Of a stretch of DNA of 46,669 nucleotides, positions 1-37,076 are shown piece after piece; within the stretch, counting starts at the first letter, position 1; each line of letters starts with the position of its first letter. The notes beneath the pieces were generated by a model. The model was not told the origin of the DNA and did not search any database. It saw only the letters and a list, made by a program, of their open reading frames with translations. A program made the translations under genes and the position numbers. This DNA is from a virus: the IMG/VR virus record IMGVR_UViG_3300010236_000002, one strand, 5' to 3'.

Positions 1-99
1 GAGGCGGAGGCGGTGGAGATACCACAACTACATTAAGATATGCTCCTTATCTCGAGGGGCATCATCATCATTTGCTTGATATTGCTCGGGGAAACTATC
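1..99. repeat. Terminal overlap: nt 1-99 are identical to nt 46571-46669 (circular-assembly overlap or terminal redundancy)
   Basis: Direct comparison of the first and last 99 nt (gaggcggaggcggtggagat...gggaaactatc) shows identity. Confidence 0.95.
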
Positions 100-866
100 A
101 CGCAGCAATAGCTACTGCTTCTCCCTATGCAAGTTTCGCAGCGGTGGAGGTCGAAGATGCATTCTTTGGAGCAGGCTATGCAATTGCTAGTTTCCCAAGC
201 CTCTATGATATGTACGGTAAGTTCATGGCAGGCCTGGATATTGAGGTTCTATGGGCGCAGGAGTTTGATGATACGGTTAATGCCACTGAAGTAGACAACC
301 TTGTAGCAGCAGAGCGAGATCTTCTGGACGATGATATCGAGATGAATATCTTGCCAAGGTTTCTCACTGGGCAGAGGGATATCAACTCGGTTATGTCTTC
401 CAGCTTTGTCACTGGCAAGGCGATTGTAGAAGATGCAAGGGTGAAGTCTATTAATAAGTTTAGCAGAGAGCTTCGGTATCATCTTATACCATATGCGGTA
501 GACAGATGGAAGACACATCTGCAGTGGAACAAAGATGTAGTTATGACATATGCAGAGTTGATGAAGTTTTACTATGCTGCTAGAAGAGATGTAGATGATC
601 TTAATACCTCAATGCTTGCTAAGGATGCCCTCTGGCCCTTCACAGCGCTTGAGTACTATCGACTTGCAGTAGGCACGCTGAATGGAGCAACGAATACTTC
701 GACTGATGTAGCTGGTGGATCGAAGATTGGGTCTGCTCTTAGCGGAGCGTTAGCCGGAGGTGTCGCTGGTGGACTGATCGCAGGCACCGAAGCTGGATCA
801 TTCCTAGGTCCTTGGGGTATGGTAGGTGGTGCAATTATTGGAGGCTTATCTGGATTGCTTGGTTAA
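1..866 (+). CDS. 3' part of the junction-spanning gene (starts at ATG 46546; 296 aa in total). Gly-rich protein, putative internal virion/ejection protein.
   Basis: The frame is open from nt 3 and in phase with ATG 46546 across the 99-nt overlap. The TTG 72 start in the ORF track is internal. N-terminal GGGGKGGGGGGGG and HHHH tracts; C-terminal GxxxG-rich segment (GALAGGVAGGLIAGTEAG...GGAIIGGLSGLLG). Function is inferred from position next to the other internal-virion-type genes. Confidence 0.6.
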   Translation, partial: GGGGGDTTTTLRYAPYLEGHHHHLLDIARGNYHAAIATASPYASFAAVEVEDAFFGAGYAIASFPSLYDMYGKFMAGLDIEVLWAQEFDDTVNATEVDNLVAAERDLLDDDIEMNILPRFLTGQRDINSVMSSSFVTGKAIVEDARVKSINKFSRELRYHLIPYAVDRWKTHLQWNKDVVMTYAELMKFYYAARRDVDDLNTSMLAKDALWPFTALEYYRLAVGTLNGATNTSTDVAGGSKIGSALSGALAGGVAGGLIAGTEAGSFLGPWGMVGGAIIGGLSGLLG

Positions 867-889
867 CTATGTTTAAATTTTGAACAAAG
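867..889. repeat. Palindromic intergenic element copy 1 (ctatgtttaaattttgaacaaag)
   Basis: Lies directly after stop 866. The CAAAG end is fused to SD AAGGAG (887-892) of the CDS starting at ATG 901. Confidence 0.9.
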
Positions 890-900
890 GAGAACAATAC

Positions 901-2466
901 ATGAACTACTTCTATGGATCGGATATGTATCCTACTATAACGGAAATGAGTGAGCTTGCACCTAGTCTCGGTGGTGCAGCTGCAGCGAGTAATCCTTGGC
1001 TTTCACTAATGGCGAATCCTGCTGTGCAGACGACGCTGTTGAACTTCGCCCAGGCTCTCGACCCGAAGGGCTTCGGCGGTAGGCTTGCTGATACCACGAG
1101 ACAGGCTATACAATCAGCGCAGACTGCGAAGGCTAACGCTATGGCGACAGGAATAGGTGCGACTAATGCACAGGTACCGCAACCGGCTGTCGCGCCCCCT
1201 GCAGGGAACGCTGGTACGCAGCCAGGAACGCCTGCGCCTATTCATGATCCTATGGACATTGCGCAGCAGTATACAAAATATGGCTCGGTGTTGAAGACGC
1301 TATCAGGGATGAACCCAAACTACTTCACCCCAAATGCGAGCCTTGCCTTAGGGAATGCCTTCAACAGCCAACCTGCCGTAAACCCTACACAAGCGGTCGA
1401 TAGCCAAGCTGCTGGACAGCCTTCGGCCGCTATGAACCCTGTTCAGCCCTTCGAGATTCCAGAGACTATGGCTATGGCTATGACACCAGAGCTCGTGCAG
1501 AATGCCTTTACGCATAGGCTTAATGTGCAGAAGACTGCGAACGAGACGCGTGCACAGAATAACGCTGACGCGATGTTGCCTACGGAGATTAACTACAAGC
1601 AGGCAGCTACGGATAAGCTGAAGTGGGATATAGACCCACAGAGAGTGGAAGATACCATTCGTGTGAACAGAGAGCAGGTGATGAACTATCTCGAGTTGCA
1701 TAAGGGTAAGCAGCAATTTGATATAGACACTGCGAAGGATTTCGTCAGTAGGTTCCCTGGCTTGTCGAAGACGAAGATTCCTTATAGTAACATGACCTAT
1801 GGCCAGGCGATTACTATGGCTGCGTATAATCCGCAGGGGAGTCAGAACATCTCTGGGCTTATCAACGCTGGGCTTGATTATAGAGCACAGATGGCTAGAA
1901 TGAACGCAGATATGGAGATGACAAAGATCAGAGCCGTTGCGGAAGGTAAAGCTGTAGATGCTAATAAGATGTTTCTTACATATGAGAAGGTGAATAAGGA
2001 TATAATGCATTATAGCAGCGATATTCCTGCAAAAGAATGGGAAGCTATGAAGCCCGAGCAACAAAGGGAAGCTATTGCGCTAGGTAGAAATCCGAGAACT
2101 CCAGAACGAGAGCAAGCTCTGCAACAAGCCATTATGCTTAGAGATACTATCGGTAGGCAGTTGATGCCTAACACTTATGATGACTTCAAAGTTGTAGAGC
2201 AGAACGCATCCAAAGCGGCAGGCGGTGTAACCCCTGGTATTCAGAGCGAGATAAATAAACTTCCCTATGGCTATACAGCACAGACAGACAAGCGTGCACC
2301 TGGTAGTGAATCTAGACCATTTACGTTGAAGGCAGATCCACAGAAGCTGAAAGATGTAGAACGTTCTATGCCAACAGTAGGTGGGCCAACAAAGCCTAAG
2401 AGTGTGCCTAGTAGCATGTGGCAGATGATGAATATCTTCAATTCTCCTTATGGAGGTAAGTCGTGA
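901..2466 (+). CDS. Hypothetical virion protein (521 aa), putative internal/ejection protein
   Basis: ATG 901 lies 8 nt after AAGGAG. The TTG 880 of the ORF track lies inside the palindrome and is less likely. Ala/Gln/Pro-rich with no catalytic motif recognised. The stop overlaps the GTG of the next gene (GTGA). Confidence 0.6.
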   Translation: MNYFYGSDMYPTITEMSELAPSLGGAAAASNPWLSLMANPAVQTTLLNFAQALDPKGFGGRLADTTRQAIQSAQTAKANAMATGIGATNAQVPQPAVAPPAGNAGTQPGTPAPIHDPMDIAQQYTKYGSVLKTLSGMNPNYFTPNASLALGNAFNSQPAVNPTQAVDSQAAGQPSAAMNPVQPFEIPETMAMAMTPELVQNAFTHRLNVQKTANETRAQNNADAMLPTEINYKQAATDKLKWDIDPQRVEDTIRVNREQVMNYLELHKGKQQFDIDTAKDFVSRFPGLSKTKIPYSNMTYGQAITMAAYNPQGSQNISGLINAGLDYRAQMARMNADMEMTKIRAVAEGKAVDANKMFLTYEKVNKDIMHYSSDIPAKEWEAMKPEQQREAIALGRNPRTPEREQALQQAIMLRDTIGRQLMPNTYDDFKVVEQNASKAAGGVTPGIQSEINKLPYGYTAQTDKRAPGSESRPFTLKADPQKLKDVERSMPTVGGPTKPKSVPSSMWQMMNIFNSPYGGKS

Positions 2467-5400
2467 ACGTAGTACTTCCTAATGGACAGATGATAGAGTT
2501 CCCTGATGGTACGAGGCAGGAGGTTATAGATGCATACCTTGCGAAGTATCCTGTAGGCCAGAAGCCAACTGAGGAGCCAGGGATAGGTGGGAGAATAGTT
2601 GGACACCTGTCTCGAGGTACAGCGAATACTCTGCAGATGCTCGACAACCTGGCGTCGTATGATAAGACTGGTTTGATGCAGCCTACAACGAAGGAGCAAG
2701 AGTTCTTTCGGCAGAATAAGTATGCCAGAGCAGTTGAGGAGCATCCGGAGAAGACTTGGTATGGGCAGCTAGGTGCAGGGCTGGTAGAGTTTGCCCCCGA
2801 GATGCCGCTGTATAGCATGGGTGGAGGCCTTGCGCTTCGTGGAGCTGCTACGATTCCAAAGGTTGGGAAGTATGCACAGGCGTTGCTTACGAAGTCTCCT
2901 ACTGCTCTTGGGCGCTATGGGAAGGCGATAGCAAGAGGTGGAGTAGAAGGTGGCGTGGTAGGTACAGTTGCCGGTACGCCTGCAGATACGCCGCTAGGTG
3001 AGAAGCTTCTGGAGGGTGGGAAGGGTGCACTGGAGTTTGCCGGTGCGGTTACAGTTCTGCATCCTGCATTTGCCGGTCTTGGGCTTGTCGGTAAGTCGAT
3101 ACTTCGTAGGCTCGGGAAGAAAGCAACGCCAGAGAAGGTAGAGCTTGAGCTAGAGAAGCGTGCAGAGAAAGACCCTAAGGCTGCTGAGGAGCTACAGGCA
3201 CTGAGGGAAGCAAGGGCAGAAGAGCCAGCTAAGACAGAGGAAGGCGAGCTATACGTCCCTGGGAAGGGAGAGAAGCTAGAGCAAGGTGAGCTCTTTGTGG
3301 AAATGCCAGGAGAGGCAGAAACGAAGAAGCTGAACGAGCTTGGCTTTGATAACGCGACGATTGAGCAGAAGCTGAGGGAAGGGAAAGATCAAGAGCTGAT
3401 TAATGCGATTGAGAAGGAGATACCTAATGATAAAGCGAACGAGCCAGGGGTACCAAGTGAAGTCGGAGGAAGGGAAGAAGCTGTCAAAGCCGACGTTATC
3501 GAGAGTGCAGGCAAGGAGGAGGCTGGCGCAGGTGGAGTGGTTCAAGAAGCACAAGGGGAAGCAACGAAGGTTGAGGAGGTAGGTACAGGCGAAGCCACCT
3601 CTGTTCAAAAATTAAACATAGAAGAACCGAAGAAGATAGAAGACATTCTTCCTCCAGAGGACGTAGCTAAAGCGAAAGCAGACGTCGCGAAGATAGAGGA
3701 GATAAAAAACGAAGAGAAGCCTGTTCCTACGGAAGAGAGCAAAGAAGCAGCAGTAGATAGTCTAGAGCAACGCCTCAACAAGCCACTCGAAGAAGGTGAA
3801 GAGATAGACTGGGATATGCTTCGAGACCTTGAGGGTACAGATGATCCTGTTGCGAAAGCGCTTGTAGAGAATATTCCGAGCAGCGGAGGTGAGCTTGCAG
3901 AGAGGCTAAGCTTCAGGCAGATGGTAGAGAAGGCGAAGGCTGAGGGGAAGGTTGAGGGTGTTTCTACGAAGCCAATCGAGACAAAGAACAAGAAGGGCAC
4001 GATCCGTAGAAGGAAAGCCACCAAGACTCCAGGGGACAAGCAGACTGTCAACGTACAGAAAGAAGCAGCAGCAGAACTTAAGGCTGAGTGGGAGAAGATA
4101 CTCGCAGACGAGGGGATGCCTGAGGAGCTTGGAAGGGAAGAGCTGCCTACAGAGAGTCTAGACTCCAGCTTTGATAGAGATGGAGCGCTAGATTTCAGTG
4201 ATCAAAGCATGTCGGTCTATAATAATATCGAAGATGGAGTTTACTTAGATAGCCTAGGCTTTCAGCAGATGTACCTGAAGCTTGCACCTTATGCTACCAA
4301 AAGTGCTCAGGCTCTAGGCCATCTCGGCAAGTTCATCTACATGGAAGGGCATAGGACGTTTGCAGAGTTTTCTAGCAAGCTGAAAGAAGTGCTGGGTGAG
4401 AGTTGGAATGCTGTTCGTCGCTACGCCAGGGATGCCTACAACGCTGCGAAAGAGTGGAATGATAGACTAGGCGAAGGTGGGTGGATTAGAGTTGGCCAGG
4501 GTGGTGCTAGTGAACTTGCAGGCGGAAGGATACAGGATAAGTTTATAGGTACAGGTGAAGGGTCAGGCCGCACAGCCTATACGGGTATGAAAGGTTGGGG
4601 GCATTACTTTAGCGCTGCGAAAGATGTCTATGAGTGGTATGCTGAGACTATTGGAGGGGCTAGACCTGGAGGTAAGAAGCACGTTCATGAGTTTGATCTT
4701 TCTATAGGACCTAGATATACATATAAAGGAGAAGAATTAAACGCTAATGATTTTGGGGCAGCTGATGCATATTTAGATCGAGGAGATATACCAGGCGCTA
4801 TTGAAATGCTAAATGATGTATCTCGGAGGGCTAAAGTTAATGGTGATATGAAAGGTAGTGAACACTTCAAAGCTATGGCAGATATAGTAGCTAGTCCTGA
4901 CTTTTCTTATAGTAATAAAAACACACTTAATCTACTTAATCTCGATCAAGAGATTCCTAAAGAGCAAGCTAAAACTATATCAGATGCTCTTAATTCATAC
5001 TTAGAAAAGGCAGATGATAGAAACAGAGATTATATCGAGATGCTGAAGAGAGAACTTGATCAAGATGTCCCTTATATTACTGGGACAGAAGTTCAAGCTA
5101 ATCTCCAGCTTATCTTTGGCGGTAAGAATGCATCGAAGTTTCTTACAAAGAAAGCAGGTATCCATGGAAATACCTATATCGGAGAAGAAAGTGGCGAACG
5201 TAACTACGTAATCTTCGACGAGAAGAACGTCCCGCCTCCAGTTAACCACTACACCCTCGACATGCTAGGTATGCATCAAATGTACGAGTGGGGCAGGAAG
5301 CTCGTTGCTTCTCGTCGTGCACAGAAGAACGCTCCCTCGAACGGAATTATAGCTGAGCTAAATGGGAAGACGCTTACAGCGAAAGACGATGCAGAGTTTG

Positions 5401-7961
5401 TAGAGGGCTCTATGCGCTCTCTCGAAGGCTTTAGAAGCCTTGCAGTCAAGGCGAAGATTATGACGCCTGATTTTGCGGTTAAGGACAACGAGAAGGTCTC
5501 ACCGTTAGTGTTCGATCTGCATAAGCGGTTCATGGAGGGCTTGCACAATGCATCTAAGCGAAACGAGGTAGTGCGTGCAGCTGAGACGTTGCTGGGCTCG
5601 ACAGGAGATAAAGAGGCTCTGAAGAATATTCTCGAAGGTAGAGAGATTCCTAAGAATAAAGACCTCAGAGACGCAGCCCTCATGATACGTGGTGAGCTAG
5701 AAGCTATTCGCGAAAAGATGAAAGACCACTTACGAGTGCAGATGATAGAGAATCTGAACAAGCATGAGTTCGCTGTCATAGCGCAGGTTCTTGCAGGGAA
5801 GGATATATCAGAAGCGATTGCTAGCTACATTCCGAGGGATAAGCTCGGGCGTAGGATGAAGAGCCCAGTTGATCGCGTGGTTATAGAAGATATTGTAAAA
5901 GAGTATAATGCGTTAGATAACTGGGGACTTGATAACTACTTCACCCACTATGAGCGTGGATCGCTACGTATTGTGAGTGGAGGGAAGCTGTATGCGAAGG
6001 CTATCTCCGTGGAGGATGCCGCGAGGAAGTTTATTGATCTAAATAACATGTATCCAGAGCTTGACTTCCAACTCGATACAGCGCACATGCAAGGAGAGCT
6101 TGCTACAGGCATTAGCAATCGAAGCTATAGTCTTATCATGAAAGACCTCGAGCGAGGGTTGAGTGAAACTATCGACGGAATCAACGGTGCAGTGAAGAGA
6201 AGGCTCGCACAAAAGACACTTGAGAGTCGCTTCTTTATTAAGCCATCTAAGCAGTTCTCTCCCTATACGCTTGATAGGCGAGCACGTCTCCAAGGTGAAA
6301 AGAATCCCTTTGATGTTCTCTATCACTATATGTATAGCATGGAGAAGAAGATGGCTCTTGACCCTGCGATAGATGCTATTCGCAAGGCCATGGCTAGGAA
6401 GGATGTTATAGGGCAGGAAGCGTACACAGCGAAAGATGGCTCAACGAAGATGAGAGACATCAAGCAGAACTATCTGACAGACGAAGAGAGTAAGTTTCTC
6501 GAGAACTATGTGGCCGATGTGAAGGGTAGGCTATACAAGGAGGATGAGTTCGTAGACGGCATTCTCAAGGGCTTCGTTGCGCCAAGGGCTTACTCACGAT
6601 TCGTAGCCAGGTCACGTGAAGTTGAAGCAAACCTTAAGTTTGCATATCGTCCAGTAGCAGGCTTCATCAATGGGCTTAGTGGACTAGGGCATGTGTGGAC
6701 GAAGACTGGATTGAAGTACACGACGGAAGGCGCAGCGTTCTTGCGTACAAAGGAAGGTAAAGCGTTCATTCGAGACATGGAACCTTACCTGGGCATGAAT
6801 GTAGTCGAGAGTGCGACTGGTGAGCTAACGACTCGTGGGACGTTCGAGAGAATGCGCCTGCTACCTGCACCTAAGACTAAGCTTGGTGAGTTCGGTCACA
6901 AGGCAATCGAACCTATGGCATTCTTCCAGGCACCTGAGCTTCCAGTGCGTAAGTTGACCATGGCTGCGAACTATCTCATGGCTAAGAGCGAAGGGCTCAG
7001 TGAGGCTGCGTGTAGGGATGCTGCGATTAAGGCTACATGGTTTCAGCAGTTTAGCTACGACATAGCTTCGTTGCCAGAGCTAATGCGAGGACCTACAGGC
7101 AGGTTAGTGACACAGTTCAAGCCATACCTTGTGAAAGAGCTAGAGTTCATCAGCCAGCTACGTGGTTGGGAGATTGCCCGCTATGCAGGAATGCAAGTAG
7201 CTCTAGGTGGACCTCGCGGGCTGATTATGGTCGCTAAAAGTATACCAATACTTGGTGCGTTCTATGGCTGGGGTGAACTTGAGGATTATCTAAACAAAGA
7301 GTTCCCGAGGGCTAGCCGAGGTATAGGTGGGGTTATGGGAGTTGATATATCTGCACCTGCGACATTCCAGTTTCCTCAGGCTATGCGAGATTGGATAGGG
7401 CCAACACTTAGCGATCTTACGAACCTGTACAAGAATGTACTCTCTTCAACAGTGGAGAACATAGTCAACTTTATGAACCCAGATACGCCAGATATAGAGG
7501 TAGGTAAGTTTGCTAGGAGCGCGGTGCCTATCTTCAAGCATTATGCTAATCTATGGGATCAGGTGGTGAGCAAAGATGGCTGGGTGAAAGATGAGAGAGG
7601 AAGAAGGCTGTGGCATATAGACAGCATGGCTACATTCACGGCCAAGAGTCTCGCTGGTGCGGAGAGCCTAGAGCTTGCTAGGATTCGTACTTATGAAAGG
7701 AACCTTCGTGAGAAGGAGAGGAGAATAGATGATGCTAAGACTGGTACAGTGGATAGCATTCTCGATGCCATTGAGAAGGGAAAGCCCATTGAGAAGGAGG
7801 ATATTGATACTATGGTTCGCTTAGGAATCAAGCCTCAGACTCTACGGCGGGCATATAGAAACCGAGTGCTTGATCCTAAGCTACGAAGGACTTTGATGAC
7901 GGAAGTTATCCGCCGGCCTGAGATTCTTGAGGAGTACCCTGATGCGAACGATTTAGAGTAG
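2463..7961 (+). CDS. Giant (1832 aa) multi-domain virion protein, polyvalent/internal ejection protein class
   Basis: GTG 2463 lies 6 nt after GGAGG (2452-2456). N-terminal MNVVLPNGQMIEFPDG motif, long E/K-rich acidic linker, and several globular modules including GWGHYFSA...GIHGNTYIGEESGERNYVIFDEKNV. It is the last gene of the rightward block and is followed by a terminator. The functional class is an inference. Confidence 0.6.
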   Translation: MNVVLPNGQMIEFPDGTRQEVIDAYLAKYPVGQKPTEEPGIGGRIVGHLSRGTANTLQMLDNLASYDKTGLMQPTTKEQEFFRQNKYARAVEEHPEKTWYGQLGAGLVEFAPEMPLYSMGGGLALRGAATIPKVGKYAQALLTKSPTALGRYGKAIARGGVEGGVVGTVAGTPADTPLGEKLLEGGKGALEFAGAVTVLHPAFAGLGLVGKSILRRLGKKATPEKVELELEKRAEKDPKAAEELQALREARAEEPAKTEEGELYVPGKGEKLEQGELFVEMPGEAETKKLNELGFDNATIEQKLREGKDQELINAIEKEIPNDKANEPGVPSEVGGREEAVKADVIESAGKEEAGAGGVVQEAQGEATKVEEVGTGEATSVQKLNIEEPKKIEDILPPEDVAKAKADVAKIEEIKNEEKPVPTEESKEAAVDSLEQRLNKPLEEGEEIDWDMLRDLEGTDDPVAKALVENIPSSGGELAERLSFRQMVEKAKAEGKVEGVSTKPIETKNKKGTIRRRKATKTPGDKQTVNVQKEAAAELKAEWEKILADEGMPEELGREELPTESLDSSFDRDGALDFSDQSMSVYNNIEDGVYLDSLGFQQMYLKLAPYATKSAQALGHLGKFIYMEGHRTFAEFSSKLKEVLGESWNAVRRYARDAYNAAKEWNDRLGEGGWIRVGQGGASELAGGRIQDKFIGTGEGSGRTAYTGMKGWGHYFSAAKDVYEWYAETIGGARPGGKKHVHEFDLSIGPRYTYKGEELNANDFGAADAYLDRGDIPGAIEMLNDVSRRAKVNGDMKGSEHFKAMADIVASPDFSYSNKNTLNLLNLDQEIPKEQAKTISDALNSYLEKADDRNRDYIEMLKRELDQDVPYITGTEVQANLQLIFGGKNASKFLTKKAGIHGNTYIGEESGERNYVIFDEKNVPPPVNHYTLDMLGMHQMYEWGRKLVASRRAQKNAPSNGIIAELNGKTLTAKDDAEFVEGSMRSLEGFRSLAVKAKIMTPDFAVKDNEKVSPLVFDLHKRFMEGLHNASKRNEVVRAAETLLGSTGDKEALKNILEGREIPKNKDLRDAALMIRGELEAIREKMKDHLRVQMIENLNKHEFAVIAQVLAGKDISEAIASYIPRDKLGRRMKSPVDRVVIEDIVKEYNALDNWGLDNYFTHYERGSLRIVSGGKLYAKAISVEDAARKFIDLNNMYPELDFQLDTAHMQGELATGISNRSYSLIMKDLERGLSETIDGINGAVKRRLAQKTLESRFFIKPSKQFSPYTLDRRARLQGEKNPFDVLYHYMYSMEKKMALDPAIDAIRKAMARKDVIGQEAYTAKDGSTKMRDIKQNYLTDEESKFLENYVADVKGRLYKEDEFVDGILKGFVAPRAYSRFVARSREVEANLKFAYRPVAGFINGLSGLGHVWTKTGLKYTTEGAAFLRTKEGKAFIRDMEPYLGMNVVESATGELTTRGTFERMRLLPAPKTKLGEFGHKAIEPMAFFQAPELPVRKLTMAANYLMAKSEGLSEAACRDAAIKATWFQQFSYDIASLPELMRGPTGRLVTQFKPYLVKELEFISQLRGWEIARYAGMQVALGGPRGLIMVAKSIPILGAFYGWGELEDYLNKEFPRASRGIGGVMGVDISAPATFQFPQAMRDWIGPTLSDLTNLYKNVLSSTVENIVNFMNPDTPDIEVGKFARSAVPIFKHYANLWDQVVSKDGWVKDERGRRLWHIDSMATFTAKSLAGAESLELARIRTYERNLREKERRIDDAKTGTVDSILDAIEKGKPIEKEDIDTMVRLGIKPQTLRRAYRNRVLDPKLRRTLMTEVIRRPEILEEYPDANDLE

Positions 7962-8250: not shown

Positions 8251-9441
8251 TTATTGTTGTTCGTAATCTTCATTATACTGCAGATACGTAGAACTTCCCT
8301 TGACAACCGTTCGGCAGAAGTTCATCTCCATAAGTGTAGCAGTTATTGCTGCGAGGGTGCGACTATCTGCGTCTAGGTATGTCATTCTCTGGAGCTCTGC
8401 TATACTTATCTCTTTCCTGCTCCCTATAATAGCCATCACTCGGTTCAGAGTATCGGCTTCTCTATTCTTCCCATATCCAGCAAACGTATGCGGCATGTTT
8501 CGCTCAGTTCGCTCTAGAATGTCCAGTGCTCGAAGGAAGTCCTCGTCTGTCAGAACCATATCGCCACAGCGACTAGCATTCATTATCATAGAGAGCTTCC
8601 ATAGATGCGTTGGCTTTCGCTCGAAGTATGGGGCGAAGCGATGATCGTCAAAGGGAGGCGGGCTATTGTCCGCTTTATAGTACCACTTTGTATAGACGTC
8701 GATAAAGCTATCGCTACATTGGAAGTTACCTTGCATCATCGAGATCTGTTCTAGGTCTATTAGCAACCGAGTCCCCAGTTCCTTTTCTTCTGGCGTTAGG
8801 AATGGCGCCAGCTCTGTGTGGTCTTTATTGCTTTCGTAGACAAAGATCATTCGACTTGTGAGGCCACCACCAATAGCATCAGGAGGCAGGGTTGAGTTGA
8901 GCAGTGCAGGTGTTGTTGCACCTATCAGGTTCACCCAGACTCCGGTTATGTCATCTGTTCCCATATTCTTCGTTCGATATTCCCAAGAGTCGCTACAGTC
9001 AAACCAGTCAGTCAAGTCCATCATCAGTTGTATGTTGTTGTATCCTAAGAATACAGTTAGTTCCTTGCTGAAGATCGTCAGCGAGGAGTGTAAGTACATC
9101 CTTCCACTCGCGTCTATGTGAGTATCTGAACTCGTTTTTAACTGATGTATCAAGGCCTCTCGGGTGATTGAGGAGCTCGATAGCTTTATCCCTAATTCTT
9201 TCAGGAAGCTTTCGCCGACAGACATAGCAGTCCCTTTTCGACACCGTCCTGGAGGACCAACAAGAACAATATACAGGTTCGGATATACGTTTATAGTGCC
9301 CCATTCGAGTTTAGTCTTCCTCCTCATACACGCAGCAATCACTGAGATAGCTGTCCATGTGTGATACATCCTCGGCGGCTCTGATCTCAAGGTGAATTCT
9401 AGATAACTCTCGAGCCAATCCTTGCACAGTCTCGTGCCCAT
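8251..9441 (-). CDS. P-loop NTPase, DUF3987/primase-helicase-like replication protein (396 aa)
   Basis: ATG 9441 has SD AAAGGAG upstream. P-loop-like LVGPPGRCRKGT, hydrophobic-acidic MIFVYE, and an N-terminal DWLESYLEF...YHTW segment typical of phage DUF3987-type proteins. The 5' 131 nt overlap the 3' end of the polymerase gene. Confidence 0.55.
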   Translation of the reverse strand: MGTRLCKDWLESYLEFTLRSEPPRMYHTWTAISVIAACMRRKTKLEWGTINVYPNLYIVLVGPPGRCRKGTAMSVGESFLKELGIKLSSSSITREALIHQLKTSSDTHIDASGRMYLHSSLTIFSKELTVFLGYNNIQLMMDLTDWFDCSDSWEYRTKNMGTDDITGVWVNLIGATTPALLNSTLPPDAIGGGLTSRMIFVYESNKDHTELAPFLTPEEKELGTRLLIDLEQISMMQGNFQCSDSFIDVYTKWYYKADNSPPPFDDHRFAPYFERKPTHLWKLSMIMNASRCGDMVLTDEDFLRALDILERTERNMPHTFAGYGKNREADTLNRVMAIIGSRKEISIAELQRMTYLDADSRTLAAITATLMEMNFCRTVVKGSSTYLQYNEDYEQQ

Positions 9442-31781: not shown

Positions 31782-31804
31782 CTATGTTTAAATTTTAAAC
31801 AAAG
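31782..31804. repeat. Palindromic element copy 13 (ctatgtttaaattttaaacaaag)
   Basis: Starts 1 nt after the terL stop. The CAAAG end is fused to the SD AAAGGTGGA of the portal gene (GTG 31815). Confidence 0.9.
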
Positions 31805-31814
31805 GTGGAAATAA

Positions 31815-34800
31815 GTGGCACTAAATCTTGACCCAGGACAAACAGGCGGAGGGAATGTGACGAGCATAGGGAGCGTGGAGTATCACTATCCACGAGGCCT
31901 AGACCTTCGTCCAAGTGGGCCTATACATGCCAAGCTTCTTGCTCGACTCAACCAGCGTATTATGGAGAGCTCAAATGAAATTAGCAAGAGACATAGCAGC
32001 TGGAAGAAGATAGACCGTACTCTTACGGCGTATATCCCGCTGGATGATGCGGAGAAGAAGGTACAAGATAGAGATGAGAGGAAGCCAGTATCTATTGTCA
32101 TTCCCTATAGCTTCGCTACTCTGGAGACTTTGCTTACTTACTTCTCTGCTGCCTTTCTTGAGTATCCTATTTTTAAGTATAGTGGCCACGGCCCCGAGGA
32201 TCGGGTCGGTGCGATACTGTTGGAGAAGGTTATCGAGATGCAGTCGAGAAGAGCTAAAATGGCTCTTGCTCTGCATACTGCTTTCCGAGACGGCTGGGCT
32301 TATGGACTGGGTGCAGTCGCTCCTTATTGGGATAAAGTATGGGGGAAGAAGACTGTTGTGGAAGATGCGACGTTCTTCTCTGCGCTCTTTGCTAAAATGA
32401 TGAGTAGTGGACAGAAGAGGGTCACTAAGGATGTAGTGCTCTACGAAGGGAACTATCTGAGAAACATTGATCCTTATTGCATCCTGCCAGACCCAAACGT
32501 GCCTATACATGAAGTGCAGAAGGGCGAGAGCTTTGGTTGGATTGATACTAGTAACTATCTGGCTATTCTAAGCGAAGAGCAGAGCGACCCACAGAACTGC
32601 TTCAATGCAAGATATCTCGCAGGCTATCGTGGTGCTAGTGGGAACAGTATCTATAACAAGGCGAAGAGTAGTAGTGGCCGTGAAGAACGCTTTGGTGTAG
32701 GCACACAGAGCGCGGCTAGCTCTACAAGTCCGATAGATAAGGTCTATCTCTACGTAAACCTAATTCCGAAGGATTGGGGCCTTGGGTCGCAGGAGTATCC
32801 GGAGAAGTGGCTCTTCTGTGTGGCAGCAGACAAAATCATCTTGCAGGCTCGGCCTCTTGGCCTGAACCACGGAATGTTTCCTGTAGCTACATGCAGCCCG
32901 GACTATGATGGCTATAGCGTGAGCCCAGTCTCTAGACTTGAGCTTATAGGCGGACTCCAGACGACTCTCGATTGGCTCGTAAACTGCTATGATGACCAGA
33001 CTGAGGTACTTACAGATAGAGGCTGGGTCTTGCTATCAGAAACTATAGATAGTGACCGAGTAGCTACTGTAGACCCTGTGACTAGAGGCTTCTGGTTTGA
33101 ACAGCCTAAACAATGGTTCGAGTATGACTACGATGGCTGGATGCTTAACTTTAAGTCTTCCAGAATGGATATATGCGTAACTCCACACCATAACATGTTT
33201 GCTCGAAGAAGATATAAAGGTAGCTGGGATTTTATTCCTGCTATTAACTTAGCTTTGGATGCTAAGAGTGAGTATAAAACGATAGGAAACCTTAACTGGA
33301 ATGGCGTTGAGCCTAACGCAGTTGAGTTCGCTGCAGAGCAACCTAAGAGAGATAGGGGACACGAAGTTAAGTACAAAAAGGCTAGAATAGAGCCTTTAGT
33401 TTTAGCTGGCTTCCTAGGCTGGTTTTTGTCTGAGGGTTCTATTTCTAAAGGTAAAGTTAGTGGCTCATATGCTATTTCTATCAAACAGGCTAAGAGAGAA
33501 AACTATGCAGATATAGATGGAATTATGTCTGCGATGCCCTTTCACGTAACCAAAACTTGGGATGATAAGAAAGATGCCACTCAGTGGACTATTACAGATA
33601 AGCGTCTATACATGTGGCTGAAGGATAATTGTTATAGTAGCGAAGGCACTACAAGTGAATTTAAAAAAGTACCTTTCTTTGTGAAGGCTTGGGATACTTA
33701 TTATCTCGAGCTTCTGTTTGAACGCGCTATCTTAGGTGATGGGTACTGGATAAAAGGTAGAGACAACTTAGCACAGTATGGATCCAAAAGTAAGCAGTTA
33801 GTAGATGACTTACAGGAGGTAGCCCTTAGACTAGGCTACTTTAGTCATACTAAGCTGTCTACTACACCTGCTGGGTTGCCTTTCTACGTACTAAACATTA
33901 GTACCAGCGAAACTAATCCTACAATAACTACTAGAAACTGTTATAAAACGCAGTATAAAGGAAAGGTTTACTGTTTTGAAAATTCTACTCATCTGACGGT
34001 GACTCGACGTAATGGAAAGGTGGCCATCCAAGGCCAGTCCCACATACAGAATGTGCGGAAGTCTATCAACGACATGCTCGTGGTTGATCCTAGCCTCGTA
34101 AACATAAACGACTTGCTCGACCCTGCACCTGGAAAGCTGATTCGTATGCGTAGGGCAGCATGGGGAAGGGGAGTGCAAAATGCTGTATCTCAGCTTGCTG
34201 TTAATGACATTACTCGTAGCCATATCCAGGACAGTGCCTACATCACGGAGCTTATTAAGACGTGTTCTGGTAGTGTTGATAGTGTCATGGGTCTTGCACG
34301 TACTGGTTCTGAGCGAGTGTCTGCAGACGAAAGTAGAGGAACAAGGATGGCTGCTCTTTCTCGTCTAACGAAGGCTGCGAAGGTTGTCTCACTCCAGATG
34401 ATGCAGGATCTTAGCTACATGCTTGCAAGCCATACGCAGCAGTTGATGACGAGACAAGTCTACGTGGAGGCTACAGGGCGATGGGAAGAAGAACTTCGTT
34501 CACAGTATCCTGATCAGAGTAGGATAAACGTAGACCCATTGAAGCTTTCGATAGACTACGATATTGTTGAGGGCGATGGAAGTTTACCAACGGGCGAGAA
34601 TGCAGATGTGATGACTACGCTCTTCCAGAGTATCGTCTCTCAACCTATGCTCTCACAACAGTTCGATATTGTGAGGATCTTCCAGCGCATCTGTATGATG
34701 ATGGGAGTCAAGGACGTGAATGAGTTTAAGCTTCGCCAGCAGCAAGGGACACTACCGAATGCTGCGGCTATCACGATGCCAGACCAGGTGGTGGAAAGTG

Positions 34801-34835
34801 AAGCGCAGAAAGGGAACTTGGTACCGATAGAATGA
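31815..34835 (+). CDS. Portal protein interrupted by an intein (1006 aa; 655 aa after excision)
   Basis: Lies directly after terL and before the scaffold and capsid genes. Extein size is typical of portals. The intein is defined separately. Confidence 0.75.
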   Translation: MALNLDPGQTGGGNVTSIGSVEYHYPRGLDLRPSGPIHAKLLARLNQRIMESSNEISKRHSSWKKIDRTLTAYIPLDDAEKKVQDRDERKPVSIVIPYSFATLETLLTYFSAAFLEYPIFKYSGHGPEDRVGAILLEKVIEMQSRRAKMALALHTAFRDGWAYGLGAVAPYWDKVWGKKTVVEDATFFSALFAKMMSSGQKRVTKDVVLYEGNYLRNIDPYCILPDPNVPIHEVQKGESFGWIDTSNYLAILSEEQSDPQNCFNARYLAGYRGASGNSIYNKAKSSSGREERFGVGTQSAASSTSPIDKVYLYVNLIPKDWGLGSQEYPEKWLFCVAADKIILQARPLGLNHGMFPVATCSPDYDGYSVSPVSRLELIGGLQTTLDWLVNCYDDQTEVLTDRGWVLLSETIDSDRVATVDPVTRGFWFEQPKQWFEYDYDGWMLNFKSSRMDICVTPHHNMFARRRYKGSWDFIPAINLALDAKSEYKTIGNLNWNGVEPNAVEFAAEQPKRDRGHEVKYKKARIEPLVLAGFLGWFLSEGSISKGKVSGSYAISIKQAKRENYADIDGIMSAMPFHVTKTWDDKKDATQWTITDKRLYMWLKDNCYSSEGTTSEFKKVPFFVKAWDTYYLELLFERAILGDGYWIKGRDNLAQYGSKSKQLVDDLQEVALRLGYFSHTKLSTTPAGLPFYVLNISTSETNPTITTRNCYKTQYKGKVYCFENSTHLTVTRRNGKVAIQGQSHIQNVRKSINDMLVVDPSLVNINDLLDPAPGKLIRMRRAAWGRGVQNAVSQLAVNDITRSHIQDSAYITELIKTCSGSVDSVMGLARTGSERVSADESRGTRMAALSRLTKAAKVVSLQMMQDLSYMLASHTQQLMTRQVYVEATGRWEEELRSQYPDQSRINVDPLKLSIDYDIVEGDGSLPTGENADVMTTLFQSIVSQPMLSQQFDIVRIFQRICMMMGVKDVNEFKLRQQQGTLPNAAAITMPDQVVESEAQKGNLVPIE
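32985..34037 (+). mobile_element. Intein (351 aa, Cys1 ... Gly-Gln / Ser+1) with LAGLIDADG homing endonuclease in the portal gene
   Basis: The TGC Cys codon is at 32985-32987 (DWLVN|CYDDQTEVLTDRGW). Block B is VTPHHN; LAGLIDADG-type motifs are LAGFLGWFLSEGS and LLFERAILGDGY. The C-terminus is KVAIQGQ|SHIQN, with the Gln codon at 34035-34037. It aligns without gaps to the last 28 aa of the polymerase intein. Low GC. Confidence 0.8.
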
Positions 34836-35113
34836 ACGAAGATAGGCTGGAGATATCTATAAGCGACCTTGAGAGCTTTGCAGAGAATAGGGTCTGGAGA
34901 CTCCTCGTGCAAGCTGCGATCAGTAGGACGAATGAGGAAGTAGAAAGAATTATTGGAACTAGTGCCTTCAAAGATCCTGATGTGATTAGCAGAGGACAGG
35001 GCTATATAGAAGGCATGAACTTCATGATTGATTATCCAGCAGTGCTTAAGGAACAGCTGGAATACCAACAACAAGAGGAGACTTGGAAAGATGGGAATAG
35101 AGAACGAGATTAA
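34832..35113 (+). CDS. Hypothetical protein (93 aa)
   Basis: The ATG overlaps the portal stop (ATGA). Confidence 0.5.
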   Translation: MNEDRLEISISDLESFAENRVWRLLVQAAISRTNEEVERIIGTSAFKDPDVISRGQGYIEGMNFMIDYPAVLKEQLEYQQQEETWKDGNRERD

Positions 35114-35930
35114 TGATATTTTAGGTGATGCGCTTCCAGTGGCAGAGCCTGTTGTGGATGAACCTATAGCAGCTCCGGCGGAGCCTGTCGCTGATTCGAC
35201 ACCTGCCGAACCGGAGCCTACAGCTGCTCCTGATGCGCCTCAGGAGCCTGTTGCCGAGCCTACTGGAGAGCCTGTCACCCCTCCTGCAGAGCCTCCAGTA
35301 GAGCCGGCTCCCAATCAGGGCGATCCGAGAGATGCGCAGATTGCGCAGTTGAACGAGACGATTGCTGCATTGCAGAAGACTATCAACGATGTGGTGGTGA
35401 AGCAGACACAGGAGGTAGCGCCAGCAAGTGAGCCAGCTGCTCCAGCCGCTATGAAGTTCGTGGAGAGCGAAGAGGCTCTGGATGAGGCACTGAAGACGGT
35501 AGATAACTTCAATGCTATGATGAGTAATGCGATGCAGAAGATGCAAGAACAGATGGCCGAAATGGTGCAGCAGATGGCCCTCCAAGTGGCACATGGGGTC
35601 TACTCCCAACGGGCAGCCGCTGATGACTTCTATCGGGCGAACCAAGACCTTGCAGCGAACAAAGCCTTCGTTGGGATGGTAGCAGATGAAATAGCTGCTG
35701 CACACCCTGATTGGGATATGTTTCAGGTGATGGAGACTTTAGGAGTAGAAGTTAGGAATAGGCTGAAGTTGGCTAACCCGAATGCACCAGTTGTGCCGAA
35801 CGAGCCTGTGCCATCGAACGAGCCTGCTCCAGCATTTGCCGGAAAGCAAGGGGCTAGACCAAGTGGTGGAGCTCCGCAACTTAGTCCTCAGCAGAAAGAG
35901 ATCAACGCTCTGCTAGACGGGTTTCTCTGA
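35091..35930 (+). CDS. Putative scaffolding protein (279 aa)
   Basis: ATG 35091 follows AGGAGACTTGGAAAG. N-terminus is a P/E/A-rich repeat (AEPV...EPVAEPTGEPV), followed by long helical Q/A/M-rich segments. Lies between the portal and capsid genes. Confidence 0.5.
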   Translation: MGIENEINDILGDALPVAEPVVDEPIAAPAEPVADSTPAEPEPTAAPDAPQEPVAEPTGEPVTPPAEPPVEPAPNQGDPRDAQIAQLNETIAALQKTINDVVVKQTQEVAPASEPAAPAAMKFVESEEALDEALKTVDNFNAMMSNAMQKMQEQMAEMVQQMALQVAHGVYSQRAAADDFYRANQDLAANKAFVGMVADEIAAAHPDWDMFQVMETLGVEVRNRLKLANPNAPVVPNEPVPSNEPAPAFAGKQGARPSGGAPQLSPQQKEINALLDGFL

Positions 35931-35933
35931 TAA

Positions 35934-35956
35934 CTATGTTTATAAATTGAACATAG
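35934..35956. repeat. Palindromic element copy 14 (ctatgtttataaattgaacatag)
   Basis: Lies 4 nt after the scaffold stop and 164 nt upstream of ATG 36120. Confidence 0.9.
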
Positions 35957-36119
35957 ACATATAACAAAGACAAGGCTTCTAAGCATACTAACGGGACGAG
36001 AGCTAGTCGTTGTGTAAGCACTGAGGTGCTCGACAAGGCGAAGCGAAGTTAGGTGAGCTAAGAGAAGGCTTGCAGCGGATAGAGGATTCAACTTTAACTC
36101 GAACAAGAAAGGAAATAAG

Positions 36120-37076
36120 ATGGCCGGATTAGATAAGTTTTTATACCGCCTGGCTAGGAGAGGCGAGCTTGCTTATGCGAAACTGCAGGGCAAGACGGTC
36201 GTAGATGCGGGAAGCACCACGATTAAGGTGCTGCTGAAGGATTCCAGTGGAAAGATCCTTCTAGCGACTGGAACTACAGTTCCGACAGATAGTGTGCCTG
36301 GATATGCGAAAGGCTGTATCTTCATCGACACTGATGCGGGAGCAGGCTCACAGGGTGCCTATATCAACGTAGGCACGAATGCAGCGTGCAACTTCGATGT
36401 GATTACCCCTATCGGTACTGGAGATGTAGACACGACTCAGCTGGCTGATGATGCAGTGACGCTGGATAAGCTCGATGCCATAGCACGAGGTTCTATCATT
36501 GTCGGTGGAGTTGACGACGCTCCCACTGCGCTTAGTGCCAAGACTGATAAGCAGATTCTGATTGGCGATGGGACAGATTTAAAGTCTGTTGCAGTTAGCG
36601 GGGACGTAACTATTGCTAACACTGGGGCAGTTACAATCGGCGCGAAGAAAGTTCTCTCCACTATGCTCGCTGACGCAGTGTTGCATGTAGACAAAGTGTC
36701 GATTAGCAAGGAAGATATTCTGACCGCTACGACAATCAAGACACTTGTTGCGGCTCCTCCGGAAGGCTATTATCTGGAGTTCCTCAGTGCATCGCTGACG
36801 TATAAGTATGCTACTGCACCGTACGCAGACGGTGGAAACATCTCCATAGGTTGGGTAGGCGGAGCAGCGTTGACTGGTGTAGCGAGTGCAGCGGACAGCT
36901 TTAGGAAGGGATCAGATACGATCCTTCAATTCGTTCCTCTGAGCACAGCAGCGAACACGCTGGTGAAAGAGACAGCTCTTGGTCTACAGACTGCTGGACA
37001 GTTCACCGACCCAGGCACTGCAGCTGGTACGGCCGAAGTAACCATCGCCTATCGCATCCTGCCGATTGAGGCTTAA
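36120..37076 (+). CDS. Virion structural protein (318 aa), head-fibre/decoration-like
   Basis: SD AAAGGAAATAAG. Contains fibre-like repeats (TTQLADDAVTLDKLDAIARGS...VTIANTGAVTIGAKK). Located in the head module. Confidence 0.5.
   Translation: MAGLDKFLYRLARRGELAYAKLQGKTVVDAGSTTIKVLLKDSSGKILLATGTTVPTDSVPGYAKGCIFIDTDAGAGSQGAYINVGTNAACNFDVITPIGTGDVDTTQLADDAVTLDKLDAIARGSIIVGGVDDAPTALSAKTDKQILIGDGTDLKSVAVSGDVTIANTGAVTIGAKKVLSTMLADAVLHVDKVSISKEDILTATTIKTLVAAPPEGYYLEFLSASLTYKYATAPYADGGNISIGWVGGAALTGVASAADSFRKGSDTILQFVPLSTAANTLVKETALGLQTAGQFTDPGTAAGTAEVTIAYRILPIEA

Follow-up and report, generated by a model that had tools for sequence, protein, structure and literature searches.

The 46,669-nucleotide (nt) viral contig analysed in this work (IMG/VR record IMGVR_UViG_3300010236_000002, referred to at its full length as the window) carries a portal gene that is interrupted in frame by 351 codons. 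Judged by its sequence and its modelled fold, this insert is a genuine class 1 intein with a LAGLIDADG homing endonuclease, housed in the SU10-type portal protein of an uncultured tailed phage; that it splices we infer. The intein ends in Gln (Gln351) at the position of the cyclizing Asn, a feature that marks a whole clade of alleles at the same portal site. We consider it highly probable that the element is a mobile class 1 intein that follows the ordinary class 1 splicing route, with cyclization of Gln351 aided by the His of block F.

Boundaries, motifs and fold of the portal intein

Within the 1006-aa portal open reading frame (ORF), Pfam matches to SU10_portal flank a central match to LAGLIDADG_3. 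The insert opens with TGC (Cys, 32985-32987) and closes with GGC CAG (Gly-Gln, giving ...KVAIQ-Gly-Gln), and the codon that follows is TCC (Ser). An intein-less portal (P0001) of 655 aa is 99% identical to the exteins and corresponds exactly to N-extein plus C-extein, its junction reading ...GGLQTTLDWLVN/SHIQNVRKS... (that is, ...TLDWLVN/SHIQNVRKS, the slash marking the junction). The contig encoding this protein (L001) aligns to window positions 31796..32985 and 34038..36818 and differs by a clean 1053-nt indel with a 1-nt (T) ambiguity. An earlier note on this DNA had described a 351-aa portal insert with Cys1, VTPHHN, two LAGLIDADG motifs, a Gln end and Ser+1, and its coordinates and motifs were all recovered here. 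The alignment of the exteins to intein-less portals likewise placed the insertion exactly where that note had proposed it, with no Asn-terminated boundary.

An Asn-Ser dipeptide (FEN/STH) is present 19 residues before the proposed end. Were the true C-terminal junction located there (...CFEN/ST...) or elsewhere, the terminal Gln would be an artefact of the drawn boundary. FEN/STH was rejected as the junction because no boundary shift fits the protein sequence of the intein-less allele, which resumes exactly at SHIQNV. The stretch from this Asn to Gln351 is without counterpart in about 117 intein-less portals, and the family register RRNGKxxxxG[N/Q] puts the Gln on the Asn column across 274 domains. 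We therefore assign a misplaced boundary a negligible probability.

The features of a class 1 intein found here are an allelic in-frame insertion, Cys1, the Thr-x-x-His of block B, Ser+1 and a HINT fold. Two residues depart from the class, namely Gln351 in place of Asn at G:7 and Gly350 in place of the penultimate His at G:6. The Cys at F:4 raised the possibility of a class 3 (WCT) intein, which was ruled out by Cys1, by Met at B:12 and by Gln at G:5. In other portal alleles G:5 is Cys, His, Ala or Ser. Among inteins generally, Cys is the second commonest residue at F:4 (PMC4031507).

The intein was modelled with AlphaFold2 (AF2) from 67 family sequences, with a predicted local distance difference test (pLDDT) score of 95.2 and a predicted template modelling (TM) score (pTM) of 0.93. 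Foldseek placed TliVMA (7qsu; E = 3.5e-18, TM 0.68), PI-TkoII (2cw7), PI-SceI (1vde) and PI-PfuI (1dq3) as the top PDB matches to this model. The portal intein shares the two-domain architecture and fold of these four inteins (E = 3.5e-18 to 1e-10, TM up to 0.68), whereas its sequence identity to them is only 10-14%. A PDB search with the sequence of the intein found no intein at E <= 10, returning chance matches to leucine-rich-repeat proteins only, and the portal intein is therefore remote in sequence from every solved intein.

Pfam LAGLIDADG_3 (PF14528) matched the insert in two stretches with E = 3e-8. In the Foldseek comparison the endonuclease domain superposed on I-DmoI with a TM-score of 0.68-0.71 normalized by the length of I-DmoI, and two helices each bear an acidic residue, as in monomeric LAGLIDADG enzymes with two motifs. 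The GDG of the second motif is kept in four of the five alleles of alignment A1, the five-intein alignment described below. The positions of these features are collected in Table 1.

Table 1. Positions of the portal gene, its intein and related features in the window
Feature	Position	Strand	Basis or remark
SU10-type portal precursor gene, 1006 aa, GTG start, in-frame intein	31815..34835	+	ORF listing; Pfam SU10_portal PF23899, E = 1e-13
N-extein, portal residues 1-390, end ...TLDWLVN	31815..32984	+	collinear with intein-less P0001/L001, 98.4% nt identity
Nine silent differences from intein-less L001	32954..32981	+	four more at 34040..34082; L001 1159..1234
Intein, 351 aa, Cys1 to Gln351 (portal residues 391-741), HINT splicing domain with nested LAGLIDADG endonuclease	32985..34037	+	exact 1053-nt indel relative to L001
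Block A, Cys1 nucleophile, CYDDQ(TEVLT)	32985..32999	+	C-[YFH]-[DS]-x-x-T-E-V-L-T conserved family-wide
Block B, VTPHHN, intein residues 65-70, Thr66 (B:7) and His69 (B:10)	33177..33194	+	V-T-P-x-H at least 90% conserved in 67-sequence alignment A2
LAGLIDADG motif 1, LAGFLGWFLSEGS, residues 140-152, acidic Glu150	33402..33440	+	Pfam LAGLIDADG_3; conserved in portal alleles
LAGLIDADG motif 2, LLFERAILGDGY, residues 243-254, acidic Asp252	33711..33746	+	Pfam LAGLIDADG_3 at residues 249-309
Block F, KVYCFENSTHL, Cys330 (F:4) and His336 (block-F His)	33963..33995	+	Cys at F:4 in 260/274 family domains
Block G, TRRNGKVAIQGQ, Gly350 (G:6) and Gln351 (G:7, CAG at 34035-34037)	34002..34037	+	RRNGKxxxxG[N/Q] register fixed in family
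C-extein from Ser+1 (TCC), with most conserved portal motif SHxxNxRKxINDMxxVDP	34038..34835	+	collinear with L001, 99.1%
Second intein, 309 aa, CVLPDTEV...KIVVTGN/S, in UDG-exo-PolA gene (ORF 9311..12721), PolA residues 517-825	10247..11173	-	family HMM E = 1.5e-70

The terminal glutamine among portal alleles and relatives

Alleles at the portal site were recovered from IMG/VR and metagenomes with a five-intein alignment (A1), and more were obtained from a search of representatives. A search of viral contigs with the single intein sequence gave no match, and the five sequences of A1 were needed. A 164-aa query spanning the junction returned only four short C-extein fragments, all below 290 aa, and the matches to the 351-aa intein query were at most 615 aa long; the protein search may limit the length of a match relative to its query.

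All 27 distinct portal-site junctions lie at one site with the form ...[LFMT]-[FVIY]-N/C ... /[ST]-H-x-x-[N/H]..., and the terminal residue is Gln in 26 and Asn in one (L017). A further, 28th allele (L005/L014) likewise ends in Gln. Across the 16 loci examined the Gln codon is CAG at 12 and CAA at three, with AAT in the Asn allele, and the +1 residue is Ser in 26 of the 27 junctions and Thr in one, the Ser+1 codons being of both the TCN and the AGY type. Identity of the portal-site inteins to that of the window ranges from 72% down to 39%, with at least eight clusters at 50% identity, and in a neighbour-joining tree they are monophyletic with 100% bootstrap.

The sole Asn-ended portal-site allele, L017 (1608..2666 of Ga0180008_1015496), closes with ..KVAVQGN/SH. 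It groups with L008 (76%) and L007 (71%) within a clade of 92% support to which the window intein also belongs, and because of this position inside the Gln clade its Asn is taken as a reversion, apparently of two nucleotides. These sequences are most simply explained if Asn gave way to Gln once, at the base of the portal clade, and was restored once. Each switch between Asn and Gln needs two nucleotide changes through Lys or His, and neither of these residues was found at G:7 among 185 domains. Variation near the active site was seen in the same group of alleles: Ala replaces the Phe after the F:4 Cys in L017, and L007 and L008 have Ser rather than Cys at F:4 (VYSFENSTH) and keep the Gln end.

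A Gln at G:7 and a Gly at G:6 both depart from the textbook His-Asn, and the intein might accordingly be splicing-dead or decaying, with the Gln disabling and the portal either non-functional or tolerating a 351-aa insert. One allele (L005/L022), with frameshifts and Gly for the second LAGLIDADG Asp, is what such decay could look like. This reading is nevertheless very hard to sustain. Twenty-six independent alleles keep an intact frame, Cys1, the Thr and His of block B, the block-F His, Gln and Ser+1. The ratio of nonsynonymous to synonymous substitution rates (dN/dS) is about 0.15, and synonymous changes are seen at the Gln and Ser+1 codons. The insert interrupts the most conserved region of an essential protein, the portal, and several portal-intein alleles lie on phage contigs of 40-52 kb that are otherwise intact-looking. 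For pairs with unsaturated dS, dN/dS was 0.13-0.18, alike in the HINT and endonuclease parts (0.13-0.15 for the latter), and both the splicing and the endonuclease parts are therefore under purifying selection. On this sequence evidence, the Gln-terminated intein is kept by selection as a working element and is not a recent lesion.

The exceptional allele L005/L022 lies on a 2690-nt contig (Ga0210056_1032149) on which three frame changes disrupt the reading frame of portal and intein. Its C-extein start, SHMVSLEKAANGMLVVDPYLVNINDLKDP, occurs twice, and its second LAGLIDADG motif reads GGG instead of GDG. Either the contig is poorly assembled or the allele is decaying. The same intein end and C-extein start are found in one frame in L014/L023.

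The portal inteins belong to a wider family. A word-indexed search with the intein gave 193 matches, and an exhaustive search found 7860 representatives at E <= 1e-3, of which 255 were at E <= 1e-30. With 7860 representatives, and with the family hidden Markov model (HMM) matching the portal intein at E = 4e-143, its likeness to the family is not due to chance. The host proteins include ThyX, Mcm, methylases, RuvC, peptidases and very long proteins with several inteins. Members share C-[YFH]-[DS]-x-x-T-E-V-L-T at the N terminus, where Cys1 is nearly invariant, then V-T-P-x-H (block B), G-K-V-Y-C (block F) and a terminal V-R-R-N-G-K-x4-G-N. This is a very large phage and environmental intein family, for which the conserved residues point to a catalytic set of Cys1, the Thr and His of block B, Cys at F:4, Gly at G:6 and Asn at G:7.

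Among 274 aligned family domains, G:7 is Asn in 258, Gln in 15 and Arg in one (P0172). The statement in the earlier note that Gln occupies the position of the cyclizing Asn is thus borne out by the family column as well as by the portal junctions. A Gln end is also seen in four family members from non-portal hosts (P0261, SYQ/S; P0284, LGQ/S; P0345, CGQ/T; P0354, AGQ/S), and Gln termini therefore arose more than once in the family.

The family HMM found exactly two inteins in the window, that of the portal and a second one in a gene for a fusion of uracil-DNA-glycosylase (UDG), 3'-5' exonuclease and family A polymerase (PolA), where it sits just before the SNMQNLP motif. The end of the PolA intein, ...YKGYVWCLQTPTSFFLIRKKGKIVVTGN/S, aligns ungapped to that of the portal intein, YKGKVYCFENSTHLTVTRRNGKVAIQGQ/S, and BLASTP of the C-terminal parts gave E = 5e-5. 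The ungapped alignment of 28 residues that the earlier note had drawn between the two ends thus reflects real homology. The PolA intein ends in Gly-Asn and has Ser at the position of the block-F His of the portal intein. Both inteins of the window have Gly at G:6, in agreement with the earlier remark that each lacks the penultimate His; since Gly occupies G:6 in 269 of the 274 domains, this absence is a family trait and not an oddity of the two. The likeness of the C-extein starts (SHIQN in the portal, SNMQN in PolA) was treated as coincidence, as the +4 Gln is not conserved in the portal alleles and is mostly Ala.

Proposed splicing and mobility

In the proposed scheme, an N-S acyl shift at Cys1 would start an ordinary four-step class 1 reaction in the precursor portal, and the N-extein would then move by trans-esterification onto Ser+1. 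Cyclization of Gln351 to an aminoglutarimide would resolve the branched intermediate, probably with the help of His336 because the penultimate His is absent, and an O-N shift would yield the mature 655-aa portal (...DWLVN-SHIQN...). The endonuclease would keep the element moving between portal alleles.

Gln at G:7 is a recognized class 1 variant (PMC4031507), and inteins that end in Gln splice through Gln cyclization (PMC4031507, PMC8175363); the earlier description of such inteins as rare, splicing by Gln cyclization and often with altered kinetics agrees with this literature. Functional inteins without the penultimate His are known (PMC4031507, PMC5050341), and complete splicing was seen in a phage intein whose penultimate residue is Gly (PMC5050341). 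The block-F His is regarded as activating Gln cyclization (PMC8229266, PMC8175363), a role with which it is credited in the PolII inteins (PMC8229266), and it is said to stand in for a missing penultimate His (PMC5050341). In the portal clade His336 is present at 27 of 27 junctions, compared with a block-F His in 101 of 258 Asn-terminated relatives.

Several points weigh against this interpretation. The splicing chemistry is drawn wholly from conservation and from other inteins, and the geometry between His336 and Gln351 is presumed. The structurally studied Gln inteins, those of Pyrococcus abyssi (Pab) and P. horikoshii (Pho) PolII, keep the penultimate His that the portal intein lacks, and the catalytic arrangement may differ. 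The association of Gln with the block-F His represents one evolutionary event, and in two of the four non-portal Gln-terminated relatives the block-F position is Thr, so the association is a lead and not a demonstration. In addition, all alleles come from metagenomic contigs, and the viability of each phage is assumed.

The branched intermediate could instead be resolved independently of Gln cyclization, by direct hydrolysis or by attack from another residue, with the Gln as a spectator that fills the pocket. Inteins with a terminal residue other than Asn may use other mechanisms (PMC4031507), and the portal clade shows its own changes around the site, with ENSTH replacing TVPN[GH] and Ile or Val replacing the family Trp at -4. 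Against a spectator role, the only residues at G:7 in the top representatives are the cyclizable amides (173 Asn and 12 Gln in the 185 domains), and the sole change within the portal clade is back to Asn, which argues that the side-chain amide is needed. We regard resolution without Gln cyclization as very unlikely.

A further reading treats the Gln as an adaptive kinetic brake, whereby slow or conditional resolution of the branch delays the mature portal and hence the initiation of procapsids ('gating'). In its detailed form, Gln351 would be activated by the block-F His alone, the intein would control procapsid nucleation post-translationally, and the Asn of L017 would be a released brake. 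Gln persisted across a deep clade despite an evident tolerance of Asn, as L017 indicates. Moreover, Gln slows the Pab and Methanoculleus marisnigri (Mma) PolII inteins and Asn speeds them (PMC4031507), and a role in tuning protein output has been suggested for phage inteins (PMC5050341). A predicted long helix (residues 374-403 after splicing) contains the insertion point, beside the most conserved portal motif, and in the portal alignment invariant columns are dense across S391 to P408 (spliced numbering). Because the insertion in this predicted helix adjoins the densest invariant run, the unspliced precursor is unlikely to assemble.

A frozen accident explains the retention of Gln equally well, because a switch between Gln and Asn passes through Lys or His, which cannot cyclize. 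Nor need Gln be slow, since the ribonucleotide reductase (RNR) intein of Chilo iridescent virus (CIV) splices better with its native Gln than with Asn (PMC4031507). The intein is absent from about 117 of the best 120 portal homologues, which gives no hint of a regulatory need. AF2 modelled the spliced portal poorly (pLDDT 62.7, and below 50 after residue 391), and the insertion could not be placed in a named portal domain. A kinetic brake is accordingly improbable in our estimate, and its detailed form is no less so. Ordinary class 1 splicing with cyclization of Gln351 remains the preferred reading.

With regard to mobility, the window and the intein-less L001 differ by 43 mismatches over 3970 aligned nt, 13 of which cluster at the junction (nine within 31 nt upstream and four within 45 nt downstream) and are all silent. 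This silent patch is consistent with a short gene-conversion tract, arising either from intein homing or from precise loss by recombination. Together with the dN/dS of the endonuclease part, it is no more than suggestive of site-specific cleavage of the intein-less allele by the endonuclease. Three more intein-less alleles and 15 flanks of intein-containing alleles were compared for the direction of change, gain or loss, and their silent sites were too scrambled to tell. Intein and extein diverge in parallel (72% and 70% between the window and L002, and 68% and 67% between the window and L006), and this points to an intein that has long resided in the portal lineage, being gained and lost repeatedly among relatives.

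Known inteins and the phage context

C-terminal Gln is established for the CIV RNR intein and for the Pab, Pho and Mma PolII inteins (PMC4031507, PMC549080, PMC8175363). The CIV RNR (RIR1) and PolII inteins share with the portal intein Gln at G:7, Cys1, a +1 nucleophile and the block-F His, and the CIV intein further resembles it in its viral, mesophilic setting. The PolII inteins are mini-inteins with a penultimate His and Cys+1 (PMC8175363), whereas in the portal intein G:6 is Gly, the +1 residue is Ser and the LAGLIDADG endonuclease is complete. No sequence relationship between the portal intein and known Gln inteins was detectable in the PDB search (E <= 10), although the PolII intein structures 2LCJ and 5BKH are PDB entries. 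As no PDB intein was matched and the nearest relatives all end in Asn, the Gln of the portal intein is of independent origin. In contrast to the CIV and PolII inteins, the Gln at the portal site marks an entire clade, which comprises at least 26 alleles, spanning 39-87% identity, plus one natural Asn revertant.

A parallel for the penultimate Gly is the intein of mycobacteriophage Bethlehem gp51, a recombination directionality factor (RDF), which is phage-borne and has Cys1, Gly at G:6 and a LAGLIDADG endonuclease, as does the portal intein. The Bethlehem intein splices completely, and a Gly-to-His change slows its splicing (PMC5050341). The portal intein matches mycobacteriophage inteins at 23-26% identity. 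The actinophage inteins that lack the penultimate His differ from it in that they end in Asn and sit in RDF, methylase, nucleotidyltransferase or terminase genes. Portal inteins are known in actinobacteriophages, where they are sporadic among related phages (Kelley et al. 2016, PMC5050341; Gosselin et al. 2025 preprint, 10.1101/2025.01.02.630785). Those portals are of another family than the SU10-type portal (PF23899) of the window, and Gln termini are unmentioned in PMC5050341 and in 10.1101/2025.01.02.630785.

The spliced-portal query found 1598 portal homologues, and the nearest solved portal is 8zkk gp5 (E = 6e-72). The closest cultured relative of the portal, that of Desulfofustis phage LS06-2018-MD01, is 41% identical and intein-free, and no record in the cultured-phage collection carries the portal intein of the window at this site. 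The portal gene lies directly 3' of the gene for the terminase large subunit, with the major head protein gene a few genes downstream. The database copy of the window portal (P0002) comes from a contig of exactly 46,669 nt, so that the window is the complete contig. P0002 was called from a later ATG as a protein of 957 aa; a start at the GTG at 31815 is favoured by the intein-less homologue.

Elsewhere in the window, a ParB N-terminal domain fused to an N6/N4 DNA methylase (12758..14122, minus strand) adjoins the polymerase gene. A 1832-aa ORF at 2463..7961 (plus strand) had no Pfam and no PHROG match, and the upstream ORFs 72..866 and 880..2466 were also unmatched. No tRNA genes were found in the window.

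Inteins with a C-terminal Gln, inteins with a penultimate Gly and inteins in portal genes have each been described before. What is new is their combination, with a Gly-Gln end, a full endonuclease and Ser+1 in an SU10-type portal, in an independent and sizeable mesophilic clade that includes a natural revertant. The finding leaves the picture of intein function unchanged, bears on no open question beyond intein enzymology and would not greatly surprise a specialist. Within that field, the portal clade adds a third independently evolved lineage to the few Gln-terminated inteins that have been studied, one that is mesophilic, phage-borne and without the penultimate His. It comes with built-in controls, in the form of hundreds of Gly-Asn relatives and the Gln-to-Asn revertant, and so offers a natural series for studying how the active site makes room for the longer side chain and whether the block-F His suffices for glutarimide formation.

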